From a virus (taxonomy: Duplodnaviria > Heunggongvirae > Uroviricota > Caudoviricetes), in IMG/VR virus record IMGVR_UViG_3300045988_157791: 64,000 nucleotides of DNA; one strand, written 5' to 3'. The translations under genes were made by a program, and so were the position numbers. The notes below the pieces were generated by a model. It had not been told where the DNA came from. It searched no databases and worked only from the letters and a program-made list of their open reading frames with translations. The number at the start of each line of letters is the position of its first letter. The stretch's first letter is position 1. Below are positions 47,910-64,000 of this stretch, piece after piece.

Positions 47910-47918
47910 TTAATGGAA

Positions 47919-47945: not shown

Positions 47946-47957
47946 GGAGTTTTAATC

Positions 47958-48188
47958 ATGTATGTTCTTATCGCTGGCGTTAACGTGCGCAATGAATATT
48001 TTGTTAATCGCATCGCTGGGATCGCTGGCTACGCTGGGCGCTCAGTCGAGTTTATCGATGAAACAACGCGTAAAATTGACTTATTGAACGACCAGGAGCG
48101 AAAAAAAGCTGAGGTGAACGACGCTGATATATTTTTAATGTTAAAAGCGTTTGTAGAAATGGGATTTGAAATCAGTTTACATAAATAA
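47958..48188 (+). CDS. hypothetical small protein (76 aa)
   Basis: AAGGAG ribosome-binding site upstream; flanked by two identical terminator hairpins. Confidence 0.5.
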   Translation: MYVLIAGVNVRNEYFVNRIAGIAGYAGRSVEFIDETTRKIDLLNDQERKKAEVNDADIFLMLKAFVEMGFEISLHK

Positions 48189-48193
48189 AATCG

Positions 48194-48220
48194 AGCGCCC
48201 ACTATGGGCGCTTTTTTCGT
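48194..48220 (+). terminator. intrinsic terminator, second copy of the same hairpin
   Basis: GAGCGCCCACTATGGGCGCT followed by TTTTTT. Confidence 0.7.
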
Positions 48221-48240
48221 TTCCAATACTTCCACAATAA

Positions 48241-48266
48241 CGCGCCATTGATGGCGCGTTTTTTAT
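48241..48266 (+). terminator. intrinsic terminator
   Basis: CGCGCCATTGATGGCGCG hairpin followed by TTTTTTATT. Confidence 0.65.
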
Positions 48267-48683
48267 TGTCTTTGACTCACTCCAACAACATAAAAATAAG
48301 CGCCAAAATAACGCCATAAACGCGCTTTTATATCCTTGCCAGTACATACCCATTACTTAACACATTAACGCGCTTAAAATGCGTTATATTGCGCTATAAC
48401 GTATGGCTAATCATTGGCTTTTAGTCTTGCTATGTGATCCGCGTTTATTTGTCGGCGCGGATCGGCATTTTGTGTTGTTTTGTATCCGCTCGCATATGAT
48501 TGCCACGTTGGGCAACGTGTACGCGCTTACAGTGATTTACCCACGGATTCACATAATCACATAGCGAAAGCTATCTGGATGGCCCAGGGGCTGAAACCCC
48601 CACCAGCGATACCCCAGCGCCGCTACGCAATTTCTGGCGCGATTCCGGGTTTCTCCCGCTCAGTTTTCTACATAAAGGCGAAT

Positions 48684-48803
48684 GCAGCCGTTTCCCGAAA
48701 AAATCCTGGCCGTTTCCCGTCGGCTCATGAATGCGTTCCTCGCCGTTTCTGAAAATTTCCCTGCGGCAGCTGGTGGCTATAGAGAAAGGGCCGTTTCTGG
48801 CCC
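48684..48803. repeat. iteron-like direct repeat array 1 (four units of GCCGTTTCCCG-AAAA type)
   Basis: GCAGCCGTTTCCCGAAAA, CTGGCCGTTTCCCGTCGG, CTCGCCGTTTCTGAAAA, GGGCCGTTTCTGGCCC at roughly 22-30 bp spacing. Confidence 0.6.
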
Positions 48804-48812
48804 TCTTCTCAG

Positions 48813-49295
48813 TTACACGCCATCAAGGATGTGGATGCGGTTGCTTGCGTATACATTCAGCATAAAGTTAGCGCAAAACAGTTTCCATGTGTCAACGCCA
48901 GCGGTATACGTAATGTTTTTGCATTTAATTGCATTGTTGGCGATCCGCATCCCCTGCGATACTGCTTCATCGTCGGAAAATTTGAACGACGATTGAGTTT
49001 TAATCCAGACAGAAATCTGCGTAGCGAACTCAATCAGCTTGGACTGGCAGAATCGCCCGGAGCGCACCGGAAAGACGAACGTTCCGAATCCAGAATTTAC
49101 CACATATGCTTTCTCAAATACCCGCGAGTAACGACGATTGCCAATGATGTTGCGTACAATAATGCATTTTTCTTGTTCTGACAGTTCTACCGTCTCATTG
49201 TGACGCCAGGCACCAAGTACTCGTTTTTCAATGTCAGAGAACGTTACAGCGATATTGCCATGTGCGGGTGCGTTTACAGTAGCGATAAAATTCAT
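48813..49295 (-). CDS. hypothetical protein (160 aa) with own operator cassette
   Basis: ATG at 49295 preceded by a conserved cassette (GATAAT-like box then AGAAAACAATTTGTT palindrome). Confidence 0.5.
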   Translation of the reverse strand: MNFIATVNAPAHGNIAVTFSDIEKRVLGAWRHNETVELSEQEKCIIVRNIIGNRRYSRVFEKAYVVNSGFGTFVFPVRSGRFCQSKLIEFATQISVWIKTQSSFKFSDDEAVSQGMRIANNAIKCKNITYTAGVDTWKLFCANFMLNVYASNRIHILDGV

Positions 49296-49335
49296 GATTA
49301 ATTCCTTATCGTAAATAACAAATTGTTTTCTTGTT

Positions 49336-49385
49336 GGCGTTAATTATCGTTGTACGAATAAGGCGTCAAAGTGGAAAGTTGCGGT
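49336..49385 (-). promoter_or_regulatory. conserved promoter/operator cassette
   Basis: AACAAATTGTTTTCTTGTTGGCGTTAATTATCG...GAATAAGGCG; near-identical cassettes at 49798-49853, 51451-51502, 51934-51988 and 54735-54810. Confidence 0.5.
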
Positions 49386-49499
49386 AGCCGGACGGGAACA
49401 GGTGGGTTTGTCGGTTGCCTGGAGGTAAGAGGTTGGTGTTTTTAGCCTGAGGGAAACAGGATGGTCATTTAAGGCCACCAGCATTGGTGGCCTTAGTCT

Positions 49500-49781
49500 T
49501 TAGTGGAGCAGACCGATGTCGATGGTATCCCCTGAATCACCCACACGGATCATCAGCATGGCGAAGGCGTTTAGTGGATAACTGGCGTGCCATTCAGGGA
49601 AGCGGTCATCTCGCATGAAGTCGGCAATGTCGTAAACGCAGCCCTCAAAGTGGAAGAATCGCGTGCTTACCTGCTCGTCATATTCCACATGATCCATTTC
49701 TTGCTGTTCTGTTTCCGGCAAGTCCAGCCATGATTCAAGGAATACATTTTGTGCTTTAGGGGTAATGGTGAAATCAGTCAT
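49500..49781 (-). CDS. small acidic protein (about 93 aa)
   Basis: Likely start MTDF at 49781 immediately downstream of a conserved cassette; Asp/Glu-rich. Confidence 0.5.
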   Translation of the reverse strand: MTDFTITPKAQNVFLESWLDLPETEQQEMDHVEYDEQVSTRFFHFEGCVYDIADFMRDDRFPEWHASYPLNAFAMLMIRVGDSGDTIDIGLLH

Positions 49782-50116
49782 GAGCATATCCTCACTGCGT
49801 AAACATGTTGTTTTCTTGTTGGTGTAATTATCGCAGTGTAGATAAGGCATAAAAGAAGTTAATACAGGCTGAATACACAAGAAAGGTTCTGGAAGTTGAT
49901 AACCAGGTTTCAAACTAACCTTCGGTTATTAAAAGTCATTTAAGGCCACCAATGCTGGTGGCCTTAATAATTATCGCCCGATTACGCTAAGGATCTTTTC
50001 CTCAACTGATTTGTTGTTGCGACTAAACTGCCTTGCGTATCTGATGACAGAAGAGGCGTTTTGCTTTCTGACCATCTCGGCTCTTTCCTTCAGGCGTTTC
50101 TTGAAATCGCCCATAT

Positions 50117-50533
50117 TTACCACCAGGCACGGAACGTCAGTCTATTATTGTGAAAGTCGTGGTTCTTAATCAGATCTTCCACAAGCTCTTTCAACTCCCC
50201 CACATCATGCCAGTAACCTTCATCGTACTCCTGACTGCCGAAGAAAAAACCTTCCCGGGTAGGCAAGTACTCTTCGCAATTACTTTCGTTTATGTGCATC
50301 AAATGAGCCTTCAGAAAACAAATGTCATTCATCGTTAATTCTAAAAGCTCACAATTTTCGACTTCACCTACGTTGCGCTCCATCCACCCAACGAGCGCAT
50401 TGAACTTACGGAAGTAAGCAACCTGCTTTCTGGATGCCTCGTTATTCAGATCGTTTTTAGGCTGCGTCTCGATATAGATATCAAGTCCCATGATGGTTTC
50501 CTTATTAAGTTGCTTCAGTGAAATCATTTTCAC
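50117..50533 (-). CDS. hypothetical acidic protein (start probably MGLDIYIE near 50491)
   Basis: ORF with AGAAAACAGATTGTT palindrome at 50549-50563 upstream. Confidence 0.45.
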   Translation of the reverse strand: MKMISLKQLNKETIMGLDIYIETQPKNDLNNEASRKQVAYFRKFNALVGWMERNVGEVENCELLELTMNDICFLKAHLMHINESNCEEYLPTREGFFFGSQEYDEGYWHDVGELKELVEDLIKNHDFHNNRLTFRAWW

Positions 50534-50608
50534 AAATCAGATAAGGCAGAAAACAGATTGTTATCGGGCATAAGAAAATGGCGCGGTTTACGCGCCATTC
50601 AAAGAGGA

Positions 50609-51070
50609 TTAAGCGAATACGCTTTCAGGGATTAAGGTGTCAGCAGGAATGCCGGAGGTAATGCGCAGGCCGTACTGACCAATCCAGGTAGTGTTGGTAT
50701 TCAGGCTGGAGGCGAATACGGTGTTAACCATATTCATCATGGTTTCAAACACCTCTTCATCAACCTGGCGGAAGTAGTTCTCGATTTTCAGCAGCAGCGG
50801 GTCAGTTGCATCGAAAATAGACTGGTATTGAGTCGCGTACTCGCCGCCGGAGGCATCACCTTTACGCACGATCGTACTGGCCTGGACTTCGGCACCAGTT
50901 TCGGTGTTGTACGTAACAACGGTGATTTTTGCCACATTCTTACCTTCGGCGGTTTCAGAGGCATAGTAAACATCAACTGTCAGTTTTTCGCGTTTAACGG
51001 TCATTTCACTCTCCGTAGTGTATTGGTTATTTTTATATTCTATGATCGTAAGTATGTACTTACAATACAA
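50609..51070 (-). CDS. hypothetical protein (start probably MTVKREK near 51004)
   Basis: TAAGTATGTACTTAC motif and a hairpin immediately upstream. Confidence 0.45.
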   Translation of the reverse strand: MYCKYILTIIEYKNNQYTTESEMTVKREKLTVDVYYASETAEGKNVAKITVVTYNTETGAEVQASTIVRKGDASGGEYATQYQSIFDATDPLLLKIENYFRQVDEEVFETMMNMVNTVFASSLNTNTTWIGQYGLRITSGIPADTLIPESVFA

Positions 51071-51130
51071 AAAAGCCCCGTAAGGATGGCGGGGCTGTCG
51101 TACGGTCGACTAATTACCACTTGCACATTA

Positions 51131-51472
51131 TCAGGCTATTGCCATCACTGATGCTCTCTGAATCTCTTGCTGGGCCACGCGGTTAACTTCCATCAAAGCC
51201 AGTTCGAGCTGATGTTCCGGCCACATTCTTTGAAATGCCACCCAGCCTTTTCCACGCTGGCGACGAACATTCATTACATAACGAGTAAAGGTGTTTTTAT
51301 CGAAAGACACCGCTGTTTCACGGAATAGACGAATAGAGGTTCCATTGGCAACGATATCCAGCAAAGTTAATTGAGCAACCAGTGCAGGCTTCTCTTTTCT
51401 CTTCTGGTCTTTGTCCAGACCAAGAACCAATGATTTTTTCATCACAACTCCGTAAACAACTTGTTTTCTCAA
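51131..51472 (-). CDS. hypothetical small basic protein (start probably MKKSLVLG at 51442)
   Basis: Conserved cassette AACAACTTGTTTTCTCAATGGCGTAAATAATACC directly upstream. Confidence 0.45.
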   Translation of the reverse strand: MRKQVVYGVVMKKSLVLGLDKDQKRKEKPALVAQLTLLDIVANGTSIRLFRETAVSFDKNTFTRYVMNVRRQRGKGWVAFQRMWPEHQLELALMEVNRVAQQEIQRASVMAIA

Positions 51473-51595
51473 TGGCGTAAATAATACCAGTAAGAAAACG
51501 GCTACAAAGCATATTGATCAGGTGCATGAGCGATATGCAGGTTCTTCCCTGCGGCTATAGAGAAATTAAGCCAGCAAAGCTGGCTTTGGTTGGGG

Positions 51596-51946
51596 TTACT
51601 CGAATACTTCAAGAAACTCCTGAACGTCCCAATGCTGGACGAGGTGAAGATAGACCTTAGAAATCACGTCATTTTCGCTATCGCATGTGAAGTAGTACTT
51701 CTGGCTGCGGTTGTATGTGTCCACACAAAATTCGCTCATATCCATAAAGTCAGCATCTTCACCCATGTCGCAAATCATCAAAGCAGGTGCGTCATCACGA
51801 GTCATCAGCTCAAGCACCCACCGCGAATTGATCAGAGTGGAAGACCAACCTTCTAACTCATAAAACTGATCAAACTCTTTTTGAGTTAATTTCTTGATTT
51901 GGTTGATGTCGATATTTGCAAACATAAAGCAACCCTTAAACAACAT
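51596..51946 (-). CDS. small acidic protein (start probably MFANIDIN near 51925)
   Basis: Conserved cassette AACAACATGTTTTCTTATTGGTGTTATTATCGC directly upstream; Asp/Glu-rich. Confidence 0.45.
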   Translation of the reverse strand: MLFKGCFMFANIDINQIKKLTQKEFDQFYELEGWSSTLINSRWVLELMTRDDAPALMICDMGEDADFMDMSEFCVDTYNRSQKYYFTCDSENDVISKVYLHLVQHWDVQEFLEVFE

Positions 51947-52283
51947 GTTTTCTTATTGGTGTTATTATCGCAATAACGCATAGGCGAAAAAGGATTTTAT
52001 TCCGGTGAATGTGGTTTTGGCAGTGAGTTTTCAGGTTCAGTACCGAGTACACTTTTTACATTATTCTGATTTAGTAGCCGAAGGTGGCTGGTGGGCAGAA
52101 TAATCATCTCCCCGAAAACCTACTGAAATCGATTGTGACCCGTTGGCTGTCTGGCACAATTACGCTGTAGCTGGGCATTCAGAGGGAATCCAGCGGTAAG
52201 TAAGTTCGCCTGCACGTGAGCGCCTCTCTTCTTCCCGCACATTACAGGTGGGTAGCCGCAACTCTCCCTCTCGCTATACCGGT

Positions 52284-52420
52284 ACGCCGCCGTTCCTGAA
52301 CCGGCATCGAGCCTTTTCCCGAAATCCACACAGGCAACTCGACCGTTTCCCTGAAAACCTCCAGCCGTTCCCCGAAGGCAACCCAGCCGTTTCTGTAGCG
52401 GGATGCAGCCTTTTCCCTGT
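52284..52420. repeat. iteron-like direct repeat array 2 (about six units)
   Basis: CGCCGTTCCTGAA, GAGCCTTTTCCCGAAA, CGACCGTTTCCCTGAAAA, CAGCCGTTCCCCGAAGG, CAGCCGTTTCTGTAGC, GCAGCCTTTTCCCTG; same orientation as array 1. The overlapping track ORF 52120-52578 is probably not a gene. Confidence 0.6.
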
Positions 52421-52579
52421 ATGGACCGAAGGCTGACCGTAGGGGTGTTACGGGGGATAAAATCAGGAGTTGAATAAATACGAAAAAGGAGGCGACACCC
52501 CTCCTTCCCTCCCAACTTATACATACCTGTCTTGTTCGCTATACATGTTGTGTTTTCTTCGTGTTTTATCTGTTTCAAC

Positions 52580-53400
52580 CTCTCTATAGGCGTTAATGCT
52601 CACTCCTTCCAGAACGTTCTATACGGCGACTATTTCTGTTGGTGAATTGGGTGTGTTGTTTTCCCTGTCGGTGTATGTGGTTTCGTTCGTTTTGCGATGG
52701 TTCTTCTATGGGGTGTTCTCGTCGTTTTGGTGATTGTTCTTCTCCGTGTATGGAGTAATGGCAGGTGGGCGATTCCTTTCGTTATTGTGTTTGAGTTGTT
52801 TGTCTGGAGTGCGTGAAGGGCTTTTGTAGTTATTCGTGTATTGGGTAATGGCGTTTCCCGTGATTGTTATGTTTCGTGTCTTTTGGGATTGAGAGAAACC
52901 TTGCGGTTACAGGCTTCGTTGGGGTTTCAGTGATTCTGATGTTTCTTCGCTGTTTGGGTAATGGCGTGTCGTGGGTATCGCGCGTATGAATGTTTTCGGA
53001 TTGCCTGTGAAAGTTAGGTTGGTTGTCCGGTAGCCTGGGAAGAAGAGGTGGGTCTTTTCGGTAGCCTGCCATAAAGAGGTTGGTTGTTTTTGGTAATGGC
53101 ATATGTGTTATTTAGTTGTTTTGTTATACCTGAAAATAAGTTGTTTATATGGTTATGTAACGCAACGGGAGCGATTTTGAGCGTGTGTTTTTGTTGGTAG
53201 TGTGTTGGGTCGTCTGTGGTGAAAATTGGACGCTGTGGCGCTGTCTGCTGCGTAGAGTTACGGGTATAAGAAGTGATGTGTGAAAACGTCAATTTTTTAG
53301 ACCAAATCGGGTGAAAGCGTTGACGTTTCGTTGATCTGTTATTTAGTTGTTTTCTTATTTGTATAAACAACCATAACCTATTGATATTTAATGATGTGAT
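52580..53400. repeat. about 800-bp strongly GT-skewed non-coding region with dispersed GGTAATGGC repeats
   Basis: Plus strand is G+T-rich throughout; GGAGTAATGGCAGG, TGGGTAATGGCGTT, TGGGTAATGGCGTG, TGGTAATGGCATAT at about 100-bp intervals; minus-strand ORFs are low-complexity. Confidence 0.55.
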
Positions 53401-53489
53401 TGCTGGTATGGGAGGGGAGTAGTGGCGATCAACGGATTCTTATAGAAAAGAATCAAATTGTGACCGCCATTATCAATGAGTTGCAACCG

Positions 53490-54059
53490 TTAGTTGTTCA
53501 GATAAACATTTGGAACACGGACGTAGAAGTTCCTGTCGCCGGTAAGTTCCAGAGTAATGTTAATGTCATTACCATTGTCTAGTGTAGCCGTTGCTCTATA
53601 GAACTTATCCGTCACCTTGTCCTCTATTGTCACCTTCATACATTTTGGTGCAGTCGAACCGTTATTCTCTTTCAGAATAGTTGTCACGAGAGGGCAGGCT
53701 GCTTCTTCAAGAGCAACCTCGTCCTTGTGTGGGATGCCGATGAAGATAACCCAAGCCAGCGACGCAACGATTATGATAAATGGCACTCTGCTGCCTTTTG
53801 TAATAGTCGCGCGCTTCCAGAGATAGACAGGCAGGAGGAATACCCCCCATAGAATTGAAGGTGGTTCACAGCCAGACTCCGATAGAGCCATTCTGTCAGC
53901 TACTAACAAACCGATGGTAGTTACACCCCCAATTATAATAGCGTAATTGGTATACTCTTCCGGCGATACTCCAAAGAAGAAAGGCATGAACGCTAGAATC
54001 CACGCATAAATGTTATTCAGAGGTTTTGTTTGTTGGTTCTGGGTTTCCATCACATCCAT
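53490..54059 (-). CDS. integral membrane protein (189 aa)
   Basis: Several hydrophobic helices (IYAWILAFMPFFFG, IIIGGVTTIGLLV, LWGVFLLPVYLW, FIIIVASLAWVIFIGI) and a hydrophilic C-terminal domain. Confidence 0.5.
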   Translation of the reverse strand: MDVMETQNQQTKPLNNIYAWILAFMPFFFGVSPEEYTNYAIIIGGVTTIGLLVADRMALSESGCEPPSILWGVFLLPVYLWKRATITKGSRVPFIIIVASLAWVIFIGIPHKDEVALEEAACPLVTTILKENNGSTAPKCMKVTIEDKVTDKFYRATATLDNGNDINITLELTGDRNFYVRVPNVYLNN

Positions 54060-54211
54060 TCCATCACATAAAAATCGCGTTTATATATTATCAATTTTCT
54101 CACTTGTATAACCTAAATACGCATCCGTTTATCAATCCACCTTCCACAAACATCAGCTTTAGCTATGAAAAATAACAATCTCAAAGTGAAAACCATTATC
54201 ATAGGAAACGA

Positions 54212-54397
54212 TTAGATGAGATGGTCTAATTCATCATCTATCATTGCTTTAACACTTGAGTCATTAACCCCGTATTGATTTATGAACCGTTTCAGCTCCG
54301 GTGAAAACTGAAGGTAGATATCGTGAGCGTTTTTCACTGTAGGTTCAACGCCACGCATTTCAAGCGCCTTTAGTAGATATGAGTCTTCTTTAAGCAT
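54212..54397 (-). CDS. hypothetical small protein (61 aa)
   Basis: Short ORF downstream of 54434-54742; weak evidence. Confidence 0.3.
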   Translation of the reverse strand: MLKEDSYLLKALEMRGVEPTVKNAHDIYLQFSPELKRFINQYGVNDSSVKAMIDDELDHLI

Positions 54398-54433
54398 AAA
54401 TTCTCCGTTGTCTAGTATGAAGCGATTGCCGGA

Positions 54434-54742
54434 TTACCATTGCCAGCACTCTAGCCCTTCAACGACCGGTGCACCACAATCAAAATGTACAGAGTCAAAG
54501 CCTACATCAAGTACTTTCTGAATGTTCGCAATCGCGCCCTCGGATATACCATATCGACGCAACTCATCTTTCCAGTCATCGTCCTGTAACCCGGCGTGGA
54601 CAATGCAACCGTACTCAATTTGTGAAACCCAATCCAGCTCATTGCTTGCGATCATGAATCGGCGAGCATCTTCCTCTGATGTATGAGATGAGCTGATCAA
54701 TGCCACCTGGTAGGCTTGGGTAATGTTCAACATTTCAACCAC
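54434..54742 (-). CDS. small acidic protein (start probably MLNITQAY near 54730)
   Basis: Two operator palindromes (AAAACAAGTTGTTTT and AGAAAACAAATTGTTTT) at 54737-54802 upstream. Confidence 0.45.
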   Translation of the reverse strand: MVEMLNITQAYQVALISSSHTSEEDARRFMIASNELDWVSQIEYGCIVHAGLQDDDWKDELRRYGISEGAIANIQKVLDVGFDSVHFDCGAPVVEGLECWQW

Positions 54743-54844
54743 TCCAAAACAAGTTGTTTTCTTATGTGGTTTATTATCTCCATCAACAAAAGGCAGAAAA
54801 CAAATTGTTTTAGGTACTGTGTAAATCAGAAGGGATTGTGTCTA

Positions 54845-54875
54845 TATGAAAATGCCCGGCGTGTTGCCGGGCATT
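54845..54875 (-). terminator. metG intrinsic terminator
   Basis: GCCCGGCGTGTTGCCGGGC hairpin just after the metG stop, followed by a T-rich tract on the minus strand. Confidence 0.65.
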
Positions 54876-54894
54876 GCGAAGAGAGGTTGTTTAA

Positions 54895-56928
54895 TTACTT
54901 AACCTGGTGGCCAGGTTTAGCACCAGCATCCGGGCTTAACAGGAAGATATCTTTCCCGCCGGGGCCAGCAGCCATCACCATGCCTTCAGAGATACCGAAG
55001 CGCATTTTACGTGGTGCCAGGTTAGCCACCATAATGGTGTGACGACCAATCAGTGCCTGCGGATCCGGGTAGGCAGAACGAATACCGGAGAAGACATTGC
55101 GTTTTTCACCGCCGAGATCCAGTGTCAGGCGCAGCAGTTTGTCAGAACCTTCAACAAACTCTGCGTTTTCGATCAGCGCTACGCGCAGGTCAACTTTGGC
55201 GAAGTCGTCAAAGGTGATGGTTTCCTGAATCGGATCATCTGCCAGTGGGCCAGTAACTGGCGCGGCAGCTGCTTTCACTTCTTCTTTAGACGCTTCCACC
55301 AGTGCTTCAACCTGCTTCATATCGATGCGGTTATACAGTGCCTTGAACGGATTTACTTTATGGCCCAGCAGCGGTTGCTGGATACCATCCCAGGTCAGTT
55401 CTGTATTCAGGAATGCTTCTGCACGTTCAGTCAGTTTCGGCAGTACCGGCTTCAGGTACGTCATCAGCACGCGGAACAGGTTAATGCCCATAGAGCAAAT
55501 CGCCTGCAGATCGGCATCGCGTCCTTCCTGCTTCGCCACCACCCACGGAGCCTGTTCATCGACATAGCGGTTAGCCAGGTCAGCCAGTGCCATGATTTCA
55601 CGGATAGCTTTACCAAATTCGCGGCTTTCCCACGCTTCACCAATCACTTCAGCGGCATCAGTGAAGGTTTTGTACAACTGCGGGTCAGCCAGCTCGCTTG
55701 CCAGCACACCGTCAAAACGCTTATTGATAAAGCCAGCGTTACGGGACGCCAGGTTAACCACTTTGTTCACGATATCGGCATTCACACGCTGAACGAAATC
55801 CTCCAGGTTGAGATCGATATCATCAATGCGCGAAGAGAGTTTCGCAGTGTAGTAGTAACGCAGGCTGTCAGCGTCAAAATGATTCAGCCAGGTGCTGGCT
55901 TTAATAAAGGTGCCGCGAGACTTGGACATCTTCGCGCCGTTCACCGTCACATAGCCATGAACAAACAGGTTGGTCGGCTTGCGGAAGTTGCTGCCTTCCA
56001 GCATGGCAGGCCAGAACAGGCTGTGGAAGTAAACGATATCTTTACCGATGAAGTGGTACAGCTCGGCGGTGGAGTCTTTCTTCCAGTATTCATCGAAGCT
56101 TACGCTGTCGCCGCGCTTGTCGCACAGATTCTTGAAAGAACCCATGTAGCCAATCGGTGCGTCCAGCCAGACGTAGAAATATTTGCCCGGCGCGTTCGGA
56201 ATTTCAAAACCGAAGTAAGGGGCGTCGCGGGAGATATCCCACTGTTGCAGGCCAGATTCAAACCACTCCTGCATTTTATTTGCCACCTGCTCCTGCAACG
56301 CACCGCTGCGGGTCCATGCCTGCAACATTTCGCTGAAAGAGGGCAGATCAAAGAAGAAGTGTTCAGAATCACGCATTACCGGCGTAGCACCAGAAACCAC
56401 CGATTTCGGTTCAATCAGTTCAGTCGGGCTGTAGGTCGCGCCGCAGACTTCACAGTTATCGCCGTATTGATCTGGCGCTTTACATTTCGGGCAGGTGCCT
56501 TTCACAAAACGGTCCGGCAGGAACATGCCTTTTTCCGGATCGTACAGCTGAGAGATGGTGCGGTTTTTAATAAAACCGTTTTCTTTCAGGCGAGAGTAGA
56601 TAAGTTCTGACAACTGGCGGTTCTCTTCGCTGTGCGTCGAGTGATAGTTGTCATAGCTGATGTTAAAGCCTGCGAAATCAGTCTGATGTTCCTGACTCAT
56701 TTCGCCAATCATCTGCTCCGGTGTGATACCAAGCTGCTGAGCTTTAAGCATGATCGGCGTGCCGTGGGCATCGTCGGCGCAGATGAAGTTGACCTCGTGG
56801 CCGCGCATTCGCTGGTAACGGACCCAGACATCAGCCTGGATGTGCTCCAGCATATGGCCGAGGTGGATTGAGCCGTTAGCGTACGGCAGCGCGCACGTCA
56901 CCAGAATTTTCTTCGCGACTTGGGTCAT
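54895..56928 (-). CDS. metG: methionyl-tRNA synthetase
   Basis: 677-aa protein from [31 protein letters not shown] with class I HIGH-type (HLGH) and KMSKS motifs and C-terminal tRNA-binding domain. The track ORF extends upstream to a non-ATG start. Confidence 0.95.
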
Positions 56929-57085
56929 AGTAGGCATTACTTCTTTGTAGTGAAAAGGGGCTTGATAGTAACAAAATGGCCTTATGTCTGCCATGTGATA
57001 ACAGCATTTCTCATAAATGATTAAATGTCGTAGCTGGAGTACACTACAAGGCGACAATTGCGCAAATTAAAATAAAGGAGACGGG

Positions 57086-58186
57086 ATGAGCGAGTCCAAA
57101 TCGCCGGATGCCCTGAGAGCAATGGTAGCCGGTACGCTGGCTAATTTTCAGCACCCAACCCTGAAACACAACCTGACTACGCTTAAAGCGTTACACCATG
57201 TTGCGTTGATGGATGACACACTGCATGTCGAACTAATCATGCCTTTCGTGTGGAATAAGCCTTTTGAAGACCTGAAAGAGCAATGTAGTGGTGATCTGCT
57301 CCGTATCACTGGCGCAAAGGCTATTGACTGGAAGCTGTCGTACAACATTGCCACGCTTAAGCGCGTCAAAAACCAACCAGGCATTAATGGCGTTAAGAAC
57401 ATTATCGCCGTCAGCTCAGGCAAGGGCGGCGTAGGTAAATCCTCCACGGCGGTAAATCTGGCACTGGCGTTGGCTGCTGAAGGTGCGAAAGTTGGTATTT
57501 TGGATGCCGATATCTATGGTCCATCAATTCCAACCATGCTGGGCGCGGAAAACCAACGTCCAACCTCACCGGACGGTACTCACATGGCACCTATCATGTC
57601 TCATGGCCTGGCAACCAACTCTATTGGTTATCTGGTCACCGACGACAATGCAATGGTGTGGCGTGGACCGATGGCCAGCAAGGCGCTGATGCAGATGTTG
57701 CAGGAAACTCTATGGCCTGATCTGGACTATCTCGTTCTCGATATGCCGCCGGGCACTGGTGATATTCAGTTGACGCTGGCGCAGAACATTCCTGTAACTG
57801 GTGCGGTTGTGGTAACTACGCCGCAAGACATCGCGCTGATCGATGCGAAGAAAGGCATTGTGATGTTCGAAAAAGTCGAAGTGCCGGTACTGGGTATCGT
57901 CGAAAACATGAGTGTGCATATTTGCAGTAACTGCGGTCATCACGAGCCAATTTTTGGCACCGGTGGCGCACAGAAACTGGCCGAGAAATACAACACGCAG
58001 TTGTTAGGCCAAATGCCACTTCATATCTCTCTTCGTGAAGATCTGGATAACGGAACACCAACCGTTATTAGTCGTCCAGATAGCGAATTTACGGCTATTT
58101 ATCGTGACCTCGCAGATCGCGTTGCTGCCCAAATGTATTGGCAAGGTGAAGTAATACCTGGCGAAATCGCATTCCGCGCAGTGTGA
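57086..58186 (+). CDS. apbC: Mrp/ApbC Fe-S cluster carrier ATPase
   Basis: Deviant Walker A SSGKGGVGKSST, CSNCGHH Cys motif, divergent from metG with about 157-bp spacer, the usual enterobacterial arrangement. Confidence 0.9.
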   Translation: MSESKSPDALRAMVAGTLANFQHPTLKHNLTTLKALHHVALMDDTLHVELIMPFVWNKPFEDLKEQCSGDLLRITGAKAIDWKLSYNIATLKRVKNQPGINGVKNIIAVSSGKGGVGKSSTAVNLALALAAEGAKVGILDADIYGPSIPTMLGAENQRPTSPDGTHMAPIMSHGLATNSIGYLVTDDNAMVWRGPMASKALMQMLQETLWPDLDYLVLDMPPGTGDIQLTLAQNIPVTGAVVVTTPQDIALIDAKKGIVMFEKVEVPVLGIVENMSVHICSNCGHHEPIFGTGGAQKLAEKYNTQLLGQMPLHISLREDLDNGTPTVISRPDSEFTAIYRDLADRVAAQMYWQGEVIPGEIAFRAV

Positions 58187-58212
58187 TAAAAAGGCGGTGC
58201 AATGCACCGCCT
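58187..58212. terminator. hairpin terminator between convergent apbC and the UmuD-like gene
   Basis: GGCGGTGCAATGCACCGCC stem-loop flanked by A-run on one side, so a T-run for the minus strand. Confidence 0.55.
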
Positions 58213-58223
58213 AATCAGTTCTC

Positions 58224-58613
58224 CTACATCACGGGACAATCATCAAACTCGCCACTTCTTGCGTCGTTGATAATGTGAGTGATCACACCAAACACGGCAT
58301 TGCTGCCCGTGCATCCATCGTCATCCTTTGGCAATGCTTCCTTCTTACCGGTTCTTAAATCCTCCAGATGCTGACGTGGGTACTTCCGGTATCTTTTTAC
58401 GCGATATTCCCCATCCAGAGCGCATACAAGCAGAGAACCATCAACTGGGGTAAGTGAGGAATCAACCACCAGCAATGCACCCTGTAATATTCCCTCACGA
58501 TGATGACTATCAGCTGCCCGCATGAAGTAGGTCGCTGAAGGATGTCTGATTAGTTGCTGATCAAGAGAAATACGGCTCTCTGCATAATCCGCCGCAGGAG
58601 AAGGGAAGCCCAT
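58224..58613 (-). CDS. UmuD'-like S24 peptidase-fold protein (129 aa), lacks the N-terminal cleavage region
   Basis: MGFPSPAADYAESRISLDQQLIRHPSATYF... parallels UmuD from the post-cleavage Gly onward; Ser (ADSH) and Lys (RVKR) positions retained. No umuC-like gene adjacent. Confidence 0.6.
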   Translation of the reverse strand: MGFPSPAADYAESRISLDQQLIRHPSATYFMRAADSHHREGILQGALLVVDSSLTPVDGSLLVCALDGEYRVKRYRKYPRQHLEDLRTGKKEALPKDDDGCTGSNAVFGVITHIINDARSGEFDDCPVM

Positions 58614-58712
58614 AGCGTTTTACCTCAATGATACTGTTTATTCATACAGTATACATTGAAAAGGCATAGTTTGTGAAAGCGGGGTTTGCAGGCGCGCCAC
58701 GCTGGGGGCTAA

Positions 58713-59105
58713 TCACATTGGTGGCGTGAACTTGCCATTCATATATTGCAAAATGCTTGACTCAATTTTTTCATTAAAATCAGAATGATGCTCCTCAAGG
58801 ACAAAGCGCGCCTTATTGTTGCGCACAATAACCTCCGCCAACGGACTAACCAGAGATGTGGAGTTAGAGATTTTCTCGGCGCGCTCTACATCGCTTTTAA
58901 ACGTTACGATGAAGTGCTGGTGGCCTGGTGACCGGCGACACAACATGCGTCGCACTTCCACGGTATCTTCACGGCCTTGAGTATGTACAGGAAAGCTATC
59001 GACCACCGCTGTATTGGTGCGGATTGTCTGCATAGAACGCGTGTTGTCGTGATAGTTAAGCATGTTTAATGTCTTCCCCATCTTGCCGTTATTTTCTTGG
59101 TGCAT
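58713..59105 (-). CDS. hypothetical protein (130 aa)
   Basis: ORF in leftward operon; no recognisable motif. Confidence 0.4.
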
Positions 59106-59340
59106 CCTCGTTCTGATACACCGGATGGCTTCCTTTTGGCAACTGGAGGCTTAACTGCCGGTAGTGCCGTAACCGTTCCATGAAATAGGTGCGCAGGTTC
59201 TCTGGTTGCTCGCGGGCTACCTGTTCAGCTATGACAGGTATGTTCAATCGCTCTTTGTACGCCACACCGCTGGCAGCCAGATCAACGTTAACCTTATCCC
59301 GTTCTTCCTGACTTTTAGCTGCAATATTCCAGTCGCTCAT
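59089..59340 (-). CDS. hypothetical small protein (83 aa)
   Basis: Charged small ORF, overlaps downstream start. Confidence 0.4.
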
Positions 59341-59342
59341 AT

Positions 59343-59615
59343 TTAAGGCTCACATTTCCAGATGGTATTCTGAACACCCGAACCGGGCGCAAGATTAGGG
59401 TTAGCGTTCGCGCTATGCTGATATACTGCTTTAGACTTCCCATATTGCTGACAGGCTTTATCTGCGGTTTTTTGCAGGCTATCCAGGCCATACCAACCAT
59501 CTGACTGTATGCTTACCTTTTCACCGTCGTTGTATTGCACCATTGCACACCCAGATATAGCCAGTATCGCGCCGACAATAACGCTTTTCCATAAAACTCT
59601 ATGCAACATATACAA
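59343..59615 (-). CDS. small lipoprotein (90 aa)
   Basis: Signal peptide with lipobox AISGC. Confidence 0.5.
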
Positions 59616-59654
59616 AAATCCCCTCTGTGAATTGAGGGGATTTTAGCATGGTGA

Positions 59655-60413
59655 TCAGATATCGGCCTTATTCGGAATTTTATCAGCCACCAGCGGCAAT
59701 AAAGCCTTCGCCATTTCATGAACCAACATGGCATCAATGACGCCTAGCGTATGGACCGGCTTAATCTTTAATGCGGCCTCAAGATAGCCTCTTTCCAGAG
59801 TGGTTTTTACGCTTTTCTTGGGCGATTGTTGGGAACTATCCGGAAAATCCGGATGGTTGCCAGCCAGTCTACGCAAAACGGCCTTAACAGCCTCAATACG
59901 GTCATCATCAACTTTTTCTACAATATTGGAATTTAAATACTTCGAAGCCTTGCTATGCCAATCGCTGGTTTTAGGGTCTTGTCCATCCATCAAACGCCAA
60001 GCTTCAGCGATTAACTCATAGCCAGTAACAGTGGCTTCCTGCGCATCACCAATCAGTTGTGTGATCTCTCTTTCAAGCATGCTTAGAGCGTTAGGCATTG
60101 GTTTTTCTTCCGGTACTACTGGCACTGGAGGGGCGGCGTATACTTCAATTGTCCCATTATCAATAGGCCATTCTCCATCCTTGAGGTAGTCACTTGTGCC
60201 GTCAACTTGCTGTTCTGCAATGTGGAATGCACCTATTGGTTTTGCCTCAAGCGAGGCCAGTGCAATTCGTGCCAGTTTTAGATCTCGTGCAACCATCTCA
60301 ATAACAACTTTGCAGTCCGCACCTTCTTTACTAACACGTCCTTTCAAGTCTTCCAGATAACTAACGCTTTCGCGTGCATGGGAGATTAACTGTTCTTTGG
60401 TTAAGGTGGTCAT
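59655..60413 (-). CDS. hypothetical protein (252 aa)
   Basis: ORF in leftward early-type operon. Confidence 0.45.
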   Translation of the reverse strand: MTTLTKEQLISHARESVSYLEDLKGRVSKEGADCKVVIEMVARDLKLARIALASLEAKPIGAFHIAEQQVDGTSDYLKDGEWPIDNGTIEVYAAPPVPVVPEEKPMPNALSMLEREITQLIGDAQEATVTGYELIAEAWRLMDGQDPKTSDWHSKASKYLNSNIVEKVDDDRIEAVKAVLRRLAGNHPDFPDSSQQSPKKSVKTTLERGYLEAALKIKPVHTLGVIDAMLVHEMAKALLPLVADKIPNKADI

Positions 60414-60634
60414 TAGGCAGCTCTCTCAACAACAAGCAATTCGTCGTAGTCATAATCCGTTTCGGAACCATCCGTACCGAACAGAGTCACTTTGTCACCT
60501 TCCATCCAGAAAGATTTAACCGCACATCGTTTGCCTTTAGATGTTATGACCACATCACCTTGGGTTACATCTTCAGCGCGAACTTCTACTGTTCTCATAA
60601 TGCTGACCCTCTTTGGTGAAAACGCCTGATGCAA
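60413..60634 (-). CDS. hypothetical small protein (73 aa)
   Basis: Start/stop abuts the downstream gene. Confidence 0.35.
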   Translation of the reverse strand: MHQAFSPKRVSIMRTVEVRAEDVTQGDVVITSKGKRCAVKSFWMEGDKVTLFGTDGSETDYDYDELLVVERAA

Positions 60635-61139
60635 TACTGTTTATGATGCTGTCAGTACAGGGAGTAGAAAGCTGGGCATCTCCAGCTATTTTCATGACTT
60701 CGACATTCGCATATCGAATACCGAGGTGTATCAGACCTGCTATACCTGACTTAAGTCGAACATTTTCCATAAACAGATCCTTTTCCCGCTGTTTAACGGT
60801 CTCCAGCTCAACACGCAGTTTCTCAAGCGTTAGGGCCATCTCTACGTTCTCCTGCTCAAGACGTCGGATGTGTTGCTGTCTTTTATCCAGTTCGTCCAGC
60901 AGTGCAATCACATCGGGATCACTATCATCAACTACTGTTACGCGTGATTTTTCATAATGTTCATCTGCAAAAGTACGCCCTATCTTAAAATATCCGTCAT
61001 CACTCTCACCGGAACAGGCATAAACAACATGTGCTCCAGATATGCGCTGTATTGACATTTCCTCGCCACAAACAGAGCATTTAGGCGCTGGTTTTGGTGA
61101 ATAACGTTCACGTAACGTCAGGTAGTAAATCTCATTCAC
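60573..61139 (-). CDS. zinc-ribbon plus coiled-coil protein (188 aa)
   Basis: CSVCGEE...YACSG zinc-ribbon-like N-terminus followed by a coiled-coil segment (RRLEQENVEMALTLEKLRVELETVKQREKDL). Confidence 0.45.
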   Translation of the reverse strand: MNEIYYLTLRERYSPKPAPKCSVCGEEMSIQRISGAHVVYACSGESDDGYFKIGRTFADEHYEKSRVTVVDDSDPDVIALLDELDKRQQHIRRLEQENVEMALTLEKLRVELETVKQREKDLFMENVRLKSGIAGLIHLGIRYANVEVMKIAGDAQLSTPCTDSIINSIASGVFTKEGQHYENSRSSR

Positions 61140-61591
61140 TGTTTATTTCCTGTACGAAGCTCAGCGGCAAAAGCTACTGCGTGATCATGATGTTCAAGTG
61201 TGTATGCGCACTCAGCAAACATCTCCACGCCCTGCGCACGTACTTCAGCCAGAAAAGCATCGGTGGCTGGAGTCTCCGTTAATTCGCTAACCCAATTATC
61301 TCCGTGTTCCTCGGCACACATCGCATCGAATGCTCGCTCAGATTCTTTCAGGGCTGCATTCTCCGCCGCTAATGCGTCTCTCTGCGCCCGCAACTTCTCA
61401 ATTTCAGCAGCCATGTAGTAACCAACCATAGCGAAGACGGCAAAAGAGTTGTCTGCCTCATCAGGCGACACTGAGGCCATTAGCAGGCCATCGTAAAAAT
61501 CGTGACTCCCATTGGTGATCGCCACCGCATAGGAGTCGTGGTTCTCGCGCTTGTGAATGAGAACTACGGGATTTTCGATTTTGTTACTCAT
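61136..61591 (-). CDS. hypothetical protein (151 aa) with coiled-coil segment
   Basis: 4-nt overlap with the downstream gene; AGAAAACAATTT operator-like motif upstream near 61650. Confidence 0.45.
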   Translation of the reverse strand: MSNKIENPVVLIHKRENHDSYAVAITNGSHDFYDGLLMASVSPDEADNSFAVFAMVGYYMAAEIEKLRAQRDALAAENAALKESERAFDAMCAEEHGDNWVSELTETPATDAFLAEVRAQGVEMFAECAYTLEHHDHAVAFAAELRTGNKQ

Positions 61592-61729
61592 GTGTTTTTC
61601 TCTTCTTTGCTGTTACATAAGCACTACCAAGTGCTGGTTTATTTTCACAAATAAGAAAATGTAGAAAACAATTTATTTAAGGCCATAAGTCATGGCCTTT
61701 ATTTATTCATGCAGAAGGATTTGTAGCGC

Positions 61730-62110
61730 CTAATTGCCGTATAAAATGGGTTGAGGCGCTTGCCAGTAAGCTCCACCGTCCCATGTGAACCCCATGCGAA
61801 TAAGAGTGTTTATTGCGGCTTTGGTAGACTCTGATTCGACGCTGACTTTTCGAAACTCTTGAACCTCTTTCGCCAACTTGTATGTAATTGTGCAGGGGAC
61901 GATTGCAGCCCAGCCTTTCTCATGACTGTTAATGACCATCTGGATGTGACCATCCAGAATAGGTTGATCAGGCATGTTATTGAAAACGTCTGCCTGTTTT
62001 TGAATGTGAAGAAAAAGCCTTGCCAGCTCCATTTGCTCACTACGAGACAAGGGATTATCAAGAGGGCTTTTTGCAAAAGCGGCTATACGCTGTGCGTCAA
62101 TGCCAAACAT
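61730..62110 (-). CDS. hypothetical protein (126 aa)
   Basis: Start abuts the stop of 62110-62814. Confidence 0.45.
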   Translation of the reverse strand: MFGIDAQRIAAFAKSPLDNPLSRSEQMELARLFLHIQKQADVFNNMPDQPILDGHIQMVINSHEKGWAAIVPCTITYKLAKEVQEFRKVSVESESTKAAINTLIRMGFTWDGGAYWQAPQPILYGN

Positions 62111-62814
62111 CAGCGCACCTCACCATCTTTATGGCTGGAGTTAACTTCCGTCATTAAATGTCTGACGTAATCGACAAGAGAGCCGCCTGGTGGAATCTGG
62201 CATTCCTCAACTAACTGGAAGTAGATATCCGCTGCATTACGTGTATTGCTACCCGCGCATATTCTTTCTTCCCGAAGTGCATGAAGCTCGTTGATCAAAC
62301 GGTCACACTCTCCGTTACGCTGATCCACAACAGCCTCAAGTTCTGCGACGCGTTCACCTGGCGTCTTACCTTCTTTGCGTTGGATGGTAACGACGAAATC
62401 GCCAATTGCAGGGACGTTGTAATCCAGCTCAAGGTAGTTTTTGGCACCGCTGCGGACGAACTCACCCGCGAACATGGTGGCGAACATCGCAGAGGCCACT
62501 TCGCCGTTGAAAAGTGACTCCAGATCTAACGGAGTCCCGGCATCAAGAGCCTCTTTTGCTGTATCCATTGCATCCATGAACCGATCAAACTCATTGGCGC
62601 GCTTTTCCAAGTTTTTCCATTGCTCGCTCCAACGTTTGGCAACGAAGTCTATGAATGTTTTCGCGGATTCATCAAAATCCCCCTCAAACTTAACGATGCC
62701 TTTATCAATAATGATCTGGCCTACCGCATCCTCTGCATAACCTTTCAATGTAAACTTGAAAGGAAAATCAGAATGGCCTGTGACGTTAAAATGCTCTAAC
62801 TGGAGGTTGTTCAT
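62110..62814 (-). CDS. hypothetical protein (234 aa)
   Basis: Preceded by TAGGTAAGTATTTACCTATC motif at 62855-62880. Confidence 0.45.
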   Translation of the reverse strand: MNNLQLEHFNVTGHSDFPFKFTLKGYAEDAVGQIIIDKGIVKFEGDFDESAKTFIDFVAKRWSEQWKNLEKRANEFDRFMDAMDTAKEALDAGTPLDLESLFNGEVASAMFATMFAGEFVRSGAKNYLELDYNVPAIGDFVVTIQRKEGKTPGERVAELEAVVDQRNGECDRLINELHALREERICAGSNTRNAADIYFQLVEECQIPPGGSLVDYVRHLMTEVNSSHKDGEVR

Positions 62815-62875
62815 GTGTTTTTCTCTTATCGTTTAGTAACTACATTCTTACACAAATTAGGTAAGTATTTACCTA

Positions 62876-63931
62876 TCATTTAACGCGTTTGAAAACGTAT
62901 ACGCTGACTGTGATCCCTGTGTCTTCAAACTCGTTGGTAAACGACTTCCCTCTGGCATAAACGTAATTATCCATCGTCATCCAGTCCAGTATTGGCGCAG
63001 TGCCCGGCAATACTGCTACAAGACGCCCGCCGACTTTCAGATGCCCCAGCGCAGCCAGCGTGTGCTCTCTATGACGACCAAGCGAGTACGGCGGGTTCAT
63101 AACGATTTTGTCGAACTGATAACCTACGTTGTCCTCAGACCACTTTATGAAGTCGCAGCAAATCGTGTTCGTATACCCTTTTCCGCGCAGGATATCAGCG
63201 AAGAGAGGTGCGATTTCTATGCAGGTAACATCTTCCAGATCGGCGTTGATATAGGCCAGAAGATCCCCACGTCCGGCTTGAGGCTCCAGCAGCTTCTCAC
63301 CAGACTTCAATTCAGTGGCTCTGGCAACGTACTCAGCAATCAAGCGTGGGGTAGGGTAGAACTGGTGTGATTTTGTATCCGGTATTAATCCGGTAGCCAC
63401 AATCGTATTTAGCGTATGGCCGATCTCATACGGGAACTGCCAGTGCTTTTTCTCCTGCACGCCGCCAATGAAGCTCAGTGTGCGCTCAAGCTCTTCCACC
63501 TGCGACTTCTGGAGAGCTGAATCAGAGAAGTACCATACGCCTTTGTCTTTGCTTAATCGCCCGTCACGAAGCGCAGTGCGAACCGGCACGGAGATCGTCT
63601 TCTGGATTAACCCGAACTGCTTTGGTGCCCGTGTTTTTGGCGCGGTGCGACATGGCGCGGGGATTGCAGCAGGCATACTGTAAGCCAGCACCTCATTCAA
63701 CTTCCAGGCCACGTCAGGATGTATTTCAAAGTGAACGTTGCCGTTCTTGAACATCTTCACGCGCATTAGATTTCCATCGACGTTCATCCAGTCACCGGTC
63801 TGGCAGTCGTTTGCCCGATACGCAGCTGATAGCACCTCAGCAGTGCGGTTGATGGTAATAAATTCTTTGTGCGCGAAGAAATGAAGCAAGACACGCAGAT
63901 CGTCGATATAGTCCTCTTTGCGATAGTTCAC
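62876..63931 (-). CDS. N6-adenine DNA methyltransferase
   Basis: Motif I LEPQAGRGDL (S-adenosylmethionine binding) and motif IV NPPY; no restriction endonuclease gene adjacent in window. Confidence 0.75.
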   Translation of the reverse strand: MNYRKEDYIDDLRVLLHFFAHKEFITINRTAEVLSAAYRANDCQTGDWMNVDGNLMRVKMFKNGNVHFEIHPDVAWKLNEVLAYSMPAAIPAPCRTAPKTRAPKQFGLIQKTISVPVRTALRDGRLSKDKGVWYFSDSALQKSQVEELERTLSFIGGVQEKKHWQFPYEIGHTLNTIVATGLIPDTKSHQFYPTPRLIAEYVARATELKSGEKLLEPQAGRGDLLAYINADLEDVTCIEIAPLFADILRGKGYTNTICCDFIKWSEDNVGYQFDKIVMNPPYSLGRHREHTLAALGHLKVGGRLVAVLPGTAPILDWMTMDNYVYARGKSFTNEFEDTGITVSVYVFKRVK

Positions 63932-64000
63932 ACTAACGCTGTCCCGCCAGAAATCAGAAATGCAGTCAGCGATTATCAGACGTTCGCTGAAACCGTTTGT

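Follow-up and report, generated by a model that had tools for sequence, protein, structure and literature searches.

The 64,000-nucleotide stretch of the IMG/VR virus record IMGVR_UViG_3300045988_157791 (the window, in what follows) carries copies of two housekeeping genes of the enterobacterial chromosome, metG and apbC, with phage DNA on both sides. This metG-apbC module is very probably the long-resident cargo of a single SSU5-supergroup phage-plasmid of approximately 110 kb, a temperate siphovirus similar to Cyrano (pLF82), pSLy3, and pWPMR2. The two genes appear to have had different histories within the element, with apbC retaining the signs of an old phage-plasmid lineage, and metG being a mosaic of phage-plasmid and chromosomal tracts.

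The window (positions 1-64000) is a contiguous stretch of phage-plasmid, with tRNA, replication, tail, head, terminase, and ParB genes, an accessory region, the metG-apbC module, and early genes. The circular plasmid p2 of Escherichia coli E03 (109,854 bp) is collinear with the whole of this stretch in the reverse orientation, with 60,766 of the 64,000 nucleotides (nt) aligning at 93-99% identity, and gaps that correspond only to short variable segments. The collinearity with this plasmid extends over 95% of the window, which shares the virion, replication, and partition gene set of the SSU5 type. Plasmid p2 encodes a terminase, portal, capsid, tape measure, tail tip and fibre, ParB, and RepA, as well as RecA, DnaE, NrdAB, thymidylate synthase, a dihydrofolate reductase annotated as DfrA51, RNase HI, and four tRNAs. 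The best matches of the region around the module (54000-59500) are also E. coli plasmids of approximately 110 kb, at 98% identity and 100% query coverage, rather than chromosomes, and the annotation of these plasmids gives, in the matching order, metG, apbC, an S24 peptidase of the HumD family, and the theta subunit of DNA polymerase III (Pol III). In the first 25,000 positions of the window, Cyrano covers 92% of the sequence at 97% identity, and SSU5 is approximately 80% identical over 65%, while tblastx comparisons recover synteny with SSU5 over 44000-54650 and 61835-64000.

A search of 5426 complete E. coli genomes located the terminase of this phage type in 216 of them, at 219 places, every one of which is on a plasmid, and none on a chromosome. 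Given the collinearity with E03 p2 and the exclusive occurrence of the terminase on plasmids, the window is a single SSU5-supergroup phage-plasmid, without any part of a chromosome, and its extrachromosomal maintenance is judged from these relatives. In the phage collection, the metG-apbC arrangement is found in the Escherichia phages Cyrano, PhiR41_1, and CMS-2020a, the last two of which were deposited as phages, while the production of virions is reported for Cyrano, a close relative, on the basis of quantitative PCR and electron microscopy (PMC9928086).

The genes of the module are divergent, as on enterobacterial chromosomes, and both are intact. The metG gene (54895-56928, minus strand; 2034 nt, 677 amino acids) encodes an auxiliary methionyl-tRNA synthetase (MetRS), in which Pfam searches recover the domains of a class I MetRS (PF09334 tRNA-synt_1g, E = 1e-165; PF19303 Anticodon_3; PF01588 tRNA_bind), and in which the HLGH (residue 22) and KMSKS (residue 333) motifs and the zinc-binding cysteines (Cys146/149/159/162) are preserved. 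The protein is 99.4% identical to that of E. coli K-12, and lies one amino acid from one chromosomal E. coli allele. The apbC (mrp) gene (57086-58186, plus strand; 1101 nt, 366 amino acids) encodes a P-loop ATPase of the iron-sulfur (Fe-S) cluster carrier family, which matches PF10609 over positions 2-245 of 246 (E = 2e-102), and contains the Walker A motif GKGGVGKS at residue 112 and a CxxC motif (CSNC) at residue 280. The ratio of nonsynonymous to synonymous divergence (dN/dS) is 0.015-0.02 in metG and 0.02 in apbC, values that point to strong purifying selection on both genes.

The chromosomal homology of the module ends abruptly on both sides. In the comparison with E. coli K-12 and approximately 80 other Enterobacterales species, represented by one genome per species and considered among the matches listed only, this homology is confined to the interval between the metG and apbC stop codons (54894/5-58182/7), beyond which the aligned identity to the chromosomes falls to 33-45%. 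The GC comparison called for in the original prediction gives values of 52.6% for metG and 50.6% for apbC, above those of the left (42.4%) and right (47.3%) flanks. The suggestion that metG and apbC are the only chromosome-like DNA, with phage DNA on either side, is therefore upheld, as are the limits proposed for the segment (54845-58212), which enclose a hairpin downstream from each of the genes. The first of these is the metG terminator (54851-54875, minus strand), AAUGCCCGGC-AACAC-GCCGGGCAUU followed by UUUCAU, which was overlooked by a simple terminator scan and confirmed by its folding energy (-19.1 kcal/mol, z = -6.1). This hairpin is specific to the phage-plasmids, being missing from the K-12 and S. 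arizonae chromosomes, and has no homology to the chromosomal metG terminator. In the copy found in a Salmonella phage-plasmid, the arms differ at matching positions, a pattern that looks compensatory by eye.

The second hairpin (58192-58212, minus strand) is GC-rich, with a 9-bp stem, lies between apbC and humD, and folds at -17.9 kcal/mol on one strand and -17.3 kcal/mol on the other, with TTTTTA following the stem on the minus strand. As the U-tract is found solely on this strand, the hairpin terminates the leftward operon of humD, and its stem is simply shared by apbC. A leftward operon had been thought to begin approximately 40 bp after apbC, but it ends there, humD being its last gene. 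Sites of the attL/attR type, proposed in the same prediction, were not recovered, and the search for att-like direct repeats or insertion sequence (IS) ends bracketing the module found only short repeats at the level expected by chance. No transposase open reading frame (ORF) is present within 54300-58800, so that nothing in this interval marks a capture by a transposon or IS; an old capture event could have lost such marks.

The apbC gene and the promoter region are the parts of the module in which the age of the association is most evident. The divergent promoter and 5' untranslated region between the two start codons (56929-57085, 157 bp) is a version specific to the phage-plasmids, identical in seven of the nine phage-plasmids of the genus Escherichia that were compared, and 99.4% and 95.5% identical in the remaining two. 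Its identity to the corresponding 131-bp region of E. coli is just 56%, and among the matches listed for the approximately 80 species none is better than the 78% of Escherichia sp. E1V33. The alignment of this region to the chromosomes is restricted to the metG-proximal 60 bp or so and the Shine-Dalgarno sequence of apbC.

The apbC gene, in turn, is 82.1% identical to that of K-12 at the nucleotide level and 94.8% at the amino acid level, with a synonymous divergence (dS) of 1.58, and its product is approximately equidistant (94-95% amino acid identity) from those of Escherichia, Salmonella, and Citrobacter. Among the phage-plasmids, the identity of the gene is 96-100%, with seven of nine copies encoding an identical protein and the other two one that is 99.7% identical. 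The GC content at third codon positions (GC3) is 0.52, versus 0.62 in K-12, so that the composition of apbC has moved towards the GC content of the phage. Given the dS of 1.58, the equidistance from three genera, the best intergenic match of 78%, and the shift in GC3, apbC and the promoter region represent an old phage-plasmid lineage, and apbC is a long-resident, selectively maintained gene, rather than a recent pick-up. Among the matches listed, with one genome per species, no donor chromosome was identified: the best nucleotide identities for the whole module are approximately 90% in E. coli, 87.8% in Escherichia sp. E1V33, and 84-85% in Citrobacter, and no chromosome exceeds 83% for apbC or 78% for the intergenic region.

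The pattern found in metG is quite different from that of its neighbours. In the allele comparison, which included five E. coli chromosomes and 10 phage-plasmid copies, the metG of the window is 95.5-97.1% identical to the chromosomal alleles and 93.6-96.1% identical to the other phage-plasmid copies, whereas the matching comparisons among phage-plasmids give 96-100% for apbC and 95.5-100% for the intergenic region. Its GC3 (0.615) is similar to that of the host (0.625). A total of 426 sites were mapped that are fixed in the five chromosomes and differ in one or more of the phage-plasmids. Within the intergenic region and apbC, every phage-plasmid has the non-chromosomal allele at nearly all of these sites, while the density in metG is low and differs from plasmid to plasmid. 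In the metG of the window, there are no non-chromosomal sites over 55495-56395, and those present are clustered at both ends of the gene, with nine in its last 100 bp.

This alternation was assessed by a permutation-based runs test in the triplet formed by the window copy, plasmid pSCU-306-2, and the chromosome of EC14, in which the 110 informative sites of metG fall into 23 runs (p≤2e-4), a result with which other triplets agree. In the intergenic region and apbC, all 241 informative sites are of the phage-plasmid type, and none are of the chromosome type. Examples of phage-plasmid-type tracts in metG include 54898-54967 (11 sites), 55339-55579 (11 sites), 56452-56478, and 56890-56923, and those of the chromosome type include 55060-55291 (23 sites), 55870-56158, 56224-56437, and 56503-56686. 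The presence of clustered tracts of the two types, alternating inside a fixed locus with unconverted edges, indicates that a single resident copy of metG would have been converted repeatedly by the chromosomal metG of the host. The ends of the gene and the neighbouring DNA would have been left unconverted due to the lack of flanking homology.

A relative from the genus Salmonella supports this reading. In plasmid CP053410.1, the module is found at the equivalent place (8001-11450), with the left junction that is specific to the phage-plasmids, that is, the terminator and two AAAACAAnTTGTTTT palindromes. The coding regions of metG and apbC in this plasmid are 98-100% identical to the chromosome of S. 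enterica subsp. arizonae, and the promoter region is of the long phage-plasmid/Citrobacter type, with only 52% identity to the Salmonella chromosomal region. The most economical reading of these sequences is that of one ancestral module, the coding parts of which have been overwritten by the current host genus, as independent captures of whole genes would not be expected to keep the junctions and the promoter region.

Taken in sequence, the history proposed here would begin with a single, ancient capture of metG-apbC, in which the donor was a chromosome of the Escherichia-Salmonella-Citrobacter group and the receiving site was a variable hotspot of the phage-plasmid. Since then, metG would have been overwritten repeatedly, patch by patch, through homologous recombination with the resident metG of the host, given that copies with 94-97% identity are similar enough to recombine, and this exchange may be favoured by the element's own RecA and its presence at about five copies per cell (PMC9928086). 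At 82% identity, apbC would be too diverged for recombination, and would hence retain the age of the capture. In pLF82, two small patches of apbC, at positions equivalent to 57395-57495 and 57595-57695 of the window, are poor in phage-plasmid-specific sites (2 versus approximately 10, and 4 versus 8, respectively), and this gene may also be converted occasionally.

The lysogen, in turn, would gain an additional MetRS that is multi-copy and near-wild-type, along with an additional Fe-S carrier ATPase, both expressed from their own promoters, as the literature suggests. Loss-of-function and dosage variants of metG are classic routes to antibiotic tolerance. As the MetG of the window is essentially wild type, any effect of the additional copy would probably be exerted through dosage, regulation from the foreign promoter region, or the formation of mixed dimers, and not through an altered enzyme. 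In PMC12452169, which cites Tam et al. 2024 (doi 10.1101/2024.10.27.24316207), multiple, highly variable phage-plasmid copies of metG are associated with multidrug-resistant S. sonnei, and the expression of metG is linked to a surviving subpopulation predisposed to resistance to third-generation cephalosporins. According to a surveillance preprint (bioRxiv 10.1101/2025.09.12.675607), elements similar to pWPMR2 are present in a large proportion of S. sonnei, as well as in the E. coli clonal complexes CC131, CC23, and CC73. In the LF82/Cyrano lysogen, the transcription of apbC reaches nine times the prophage background, and that of metG is weak, at approximately 16 against a median near 10, while Cyrano itself is present at approximately 5.5 copies per cell, is SOS-inducible, and produces virions (PMC9928086).

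A number of other explanations have to be weighed against this history. The original prediction had considered a true island of core chromosome, bracketed by two related prophages or by a single rearranged prophage, and the phage-like flanks with their common motifs, together with the higher GC content of metG and apbC, are what such an island would be expected to present. It is nevertheless extremely improbable, given the collinearity of the entire window with a circular plasmid and the fact that the terminase is never chromosomal in 5426 complete genomes. The window lacks the genes that border metG-apbC on the chromosome, yehE and, on the opposite side, yehF/DUF4132, and contains no chromosomal DNA outside 54894-58187, and the identities of apbC and the promoter region to E. 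coli, the end of homology at both stop codons, and the lack of bracketing att-like repeats all point in the same direction. Both the flanked island and the rearranged prophage assume that the 3.4-kb segment is chromosomal, which runs counter to the plasmid collinearity and the missing neighbours. Of the possibilities raised in that prediction, it is the capture of metG-apbC by a mobile element that is correct, as the module is found in a plasmid-borne phage type, in which metG (220 places) is as frequent as the terminase (219 places). The integration of the element at the chromosomal metG by homologous recombination was also considered, and was rejected, as there is approximately one chromosomal metG per genome (5424 in 5426) and no chromosomal terminase, and cointegrates were not seen. 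An assembly chimera, in which a chromosomal metG-apbC fragment was misjoined into a plasmid contig, would exploit the level of identity between the metG of the window and that of the chromosome, at which assemblers can collapse or misjoin repeats. This account is extremely unlikely, given that complete plasmids from over 200 independent assemblies have the same arrangement and junctions, as well as the phages Cyrano, PhiR41_1, and CMS-2020a, and of an apbC and intergenic region that are far from any chromosomal allele among the matches listed.

The diversity of metG might also have arisen through repeated, independent captures of the whole gene from different hosts, rather than gene conversion, in agreement with the fact that the window copy resembles the E. 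coli chromosomal alleles more closely than those of the other phage-plasmids, and with the Salmonella-type genes of the Salmonella phage-plasmid. Such captures are very unlikely to explain copies that all occupy one place, share a phage-plasmid-specific terminator and promoter region, and have phage-plasmid-type alleles in common at both ends of metG (54898-54967 and 56890-56923); nor would they account for the many alternations of tracts inside the gene, or for an adjoining apbC that has not been replaced in the Escherichia copies. A further question is which partner benefits from the module. It may be kept mainly for the phage, by supporting the charging of Met-tRNA and the maturation of Fe-S proteins, with the ribonucleotide reductase and replication proteins of the element as examples, in plasmid maintenance or lytic growth, with the survival of the host under antibiotics being a side effect. 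The retention of metG at nearly 1:1 with the terminase, the dN/dS of approximately 0.02 in both genes, the near invariance of the ApbC protein among phage-plasmid copies (100% in seven of nine, 99.7% in two), and the many other housekeeping paralogues and tRNAs of the element are all consistent with this role. As the principal reason for the maintenance of the module it is nonetheless somewhat unlikely, considering the weak transcription of metG in the lysogen data, the fact that SSU5 and many Salmonella relatives manage without the module, and the host-side nature of the published phenotype (PMC12452169), but it is a live alternative, and one that is compatible with a role in the host, rather than exclusive of it.

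Some points also weigh against the interpretation of the module as a long-resident cargo with a refreshed metG and an effect on the host. Only five chromosomes and 10 phage-plasmid copies underlie the direction assigned to each conversion event, and the phage-plasmid-type signal in metG could partly be the allele of another Escherichia species, given that the listing of the species scan was without the chromosomes of E. albertii, E. fergusonii, and E. marmotae. With a MetG that differs by one amino acid from an ordinary chromosomal allele, any phenotype would have to come from dosage or regulation, and the tolerance mechanism rests on the secondary summary given in PMC12452169. The RNA-seq reads of metG may cross-map between the two copies.

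Gene conversion may also have proceeded in the opposite direction. Clusters of phage-plasmid-type alleles are present in two chromosomal metG genes, with six consecutive informative sites in SCU-102 (56101-56278) and four in O157:H7 (56595-56608), and the MetG of SCU-102 carries the plasmid-signature residues T275/T276. These patches suggest plasmid-to-chromosome conversion, and the five E. coli chromosomal alleles have a mutual identity of 95.8-97.9%. That the phage-plasmid metG is a two-way recombination partner, shuttling variants of the gene, including those associated with tolerance, between strains and species, is a tentative and rather doubtful proposal. If true, two-way exchange through an element present in approximately 4% of the complete E. 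coli genomes searched might help to explain the differences among the five chromosomal metG alleles compared. The pattern of recombination suggests non-independent evolution of the plasmid and chromosomal copies, which matters for the use of metG alleles as markers and for the interpretation of genome-wide association hits in this gene.

[quoted passage not shown] The S. sonnei plasmid NZ_CP045933.1, which is not confirmed as pWPMR2, has the module at the same site, with 96.9% identity, although its MetG has the substitutions G134C, A410T, and D565E, which are absent from that of the window, where the allele is mostly of the chromosome type. Cyrano (pLF82; OV696614/NC_011917), which is inducible in the adherent-invasive E. 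coli strain LF82 (PMC9928086), shares with the window not only the backbone of positions 1-25000 but also the metG-apbC-humD arrangement and an identical ApbC protein. It differs in its metG, which is 95.5% identical and has other conversion tracts, and in the two small chromosome-like patches of its apbC. Salmonella phage SSU5 (NC_018843), the type member of the supergroup, retains the structural, replication, and partition genes in synteny, at approximately 80% nucleotide identity, as well as the backbone genes that flank the hotspot, but lacks metG, apbC, and humD-hot. The humD and hot genes of phage P1 are approximately 90% identical to those on the right of apbC, which have a LexA box and are found here in an SSU5-type, rather than a P1-type, backbone.

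The plasmid-borne gene mupA/ileS2, responsible for mupirocin resistance, is another case in which an additional aminoacyl-tRNA synthetase gene on a mobile element alters the response of the host to an antibiotic. MupA is a divergent enzyme, insensitive to the inhibitor, whereas the MetG of the window is 99-99.9% identical to that of the host. Given this similarity, any effect of the latter would be exerted through dosage, regulation, or heterodimers, rather than through the replacement of the target.

The module occupies a variable accessory hotspot (54650-61835), located between the homologues of SSU5_105, on the left, and SSU5_097, on the right, as defined by tblastx against SSU5. This placement is based on the presence in SSU5 of 3.5 kb of unrelated genes (SSU5_098-104) at this site, with no metG-apbC, and on the variation in the right-hand neighbour of apbC among the phage-plasmids, which may be humD, der, or fdeC. 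The left limit of the conserved backbone synteny is a DUF5983-family gene (54434-54742, minus strand; PF19419, E = 8e-13), the homologue of SSU5_105 (SSU5 88733-88948 by tblastx) and the first gene of the leftward phage-plasmid operon on this side of the module. The left flank consists of this gene and small ORFs, and the right flank includes humD (S24 peptidase), hot (Pol III theta), and Ead/Ea22. The portion related to the P1 humD-hot genes (58224-59340, minus strand) is formed by humD (58224-58613), an ORF (58713-59105), and hot (59089-59340), with Pfam matches to Peptidase_S24 and DNA_pol3_theta, and is part of this hotspot as well. A perfect LexA (SOS) box, TACTGTTTATTCATACAGTA, is read at 58632-58651, where it overlaps the predicted humD promoter (TTCACA-18-TATACT, 58677-58648, minus strand). 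The presence of P1-like humD-hot genes in an SSU5-type backbone implies an exchange of modules between two unrelated phage-plasmid families.

The complete E. coli genomes contain metG at 220 places on plasmids and at 5424 on chromosomes, the latter figure being approximately one per chromosome. A similar balance is observed in PLSDB, where 201 plasmids have at least 80% of the module and 195 have the terminase, and where the carriers of the module are mostly from Escherichia and Shigella, including the hosts E. albertii, E. fergusonii, and E. marmotae. Essentially every Escherichia/Shigella member of this phage type thus carries the module, which is nearly a core gene set of this branch of the supergroup. 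This near-universal retention fits the element's habit of carrying housekeeping paralogues, such as nrdAB, thyA, the gene annotated as dfrA51, dnaE, recA, rnhA, and tRNAs. In the collinear plasmid, the gene annotated as dfrA51, a trimethoprim-resistance gene, is a phage dihydrofolate reductase located at E03 p2 8131-8607, outside the window; the genes dfrA50/51 of phage-plasmids are the subject of PMC12217456.

The palindromic motifs that had been reported in both flanks of the module are real and enriched, and point to a single element, but they are distributed throughout this element, rather than being features of the junctions. The TAAGTA sequence occurs 39 times in the window, versus 20.9 expected, and the TAAGTA-N2-TACTTA palindrome has 23 sites with up to two mismatches, versus 1.55 expected, in intergenic regions across the 64 kb. 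Its perfect copies lie at 979-992, 16903-16916, 30329-30342, and 51049-51062, with further copies at 7930, 12678, 23822, 35824, 42618, and 62862; some sites are doubled or overlapping, and those nearest to the module (51049 and 62862) are off the junctions. This palindrome is a candidate binding site for a transcription factor encoded by the element.

Palindromes of the AAACAAnTTGTTT type number 18, versus 7.3 expected, and are clustered on the left side, upstream of leftward accessory genes, often in pairs some 25-50 bp apart (7151, 10081, 39270/39295, 49315, 51453, and 54746/54797). Two perfect copies of AAAACAAnTTGTTTT are present (54746-54760 and 54797-54811), versus 0.02 expected, both of them on the left of the module, where they form an inverted-repeat pair immediately upstream of the DUF5983 gene, the start of which is at 54742. 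The right flank has just a copy with two mismatches, at 61665. This pair, which is conserved in the Salmonella phage-plasmid CP053410.1, would represent candidate operators of the leftward DUF5983 promoter, outside the captured host DNA. It was also considered as part of the metG terminator, but an operator fits better, given the position of the pair and the similar copies found upstream of other accessory genes. Overall, the motifs support a single element, and are uninformative on the capture of the module.

The presence of metG on phage-plasmids is already published, in pWPMR2, and is routinely annotated in RefSeq, while a literature search pairing SSU5 with methionyl-tRNA synthetase returned no match. 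Three aspects were not found described in the literature examined: the contrast between the old apbC and promoter region and a mosaic metG refreshed by the host, a module that is cut at both of its stop codons and bears terminators of a phage-specific type, and the hints of phage-plasmid-type patches in chromosomal metG alleles. For annotation, the lesson is that what seems to be an island of core genes between prophages can be the housekeeping cargo of an extrachromosomal phage. Cargo of this type inflates the apparent copy number of core genes, and can confuse multilocus sequence typing, pangenome, and read-mapping analyses of metG.

Some minor features of the window and the comparisons complete this picture. 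The genes for tRNA-Tyr and tRNA-Asn are found on the minus strand at 59-225, at the edge of the window, and in the collinear plasmid they belong to a cluster of four tRNAs (Asn, Tyr, Thr, and Ser). Only four stretches of the window lack megablast similarity to the closest plasmid (8089-9020, 10154-11203, 13390-13708, and 14747-15372), the last two of which are inside a tail-fibre ORF (12817-16854), and all four are likely to be host-range or accessory variable cassettes. Finally, the record CP170191.1, labelled as the chromosome of Enterobacter hormaechei B56, matches the metG-apbC of the window at 89.885%, close to the value of K-12 (89.903%) and above the approximately 83% of other Enterobacter, and may be either mislabelled or the carrier of an E. 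coli-type locus.

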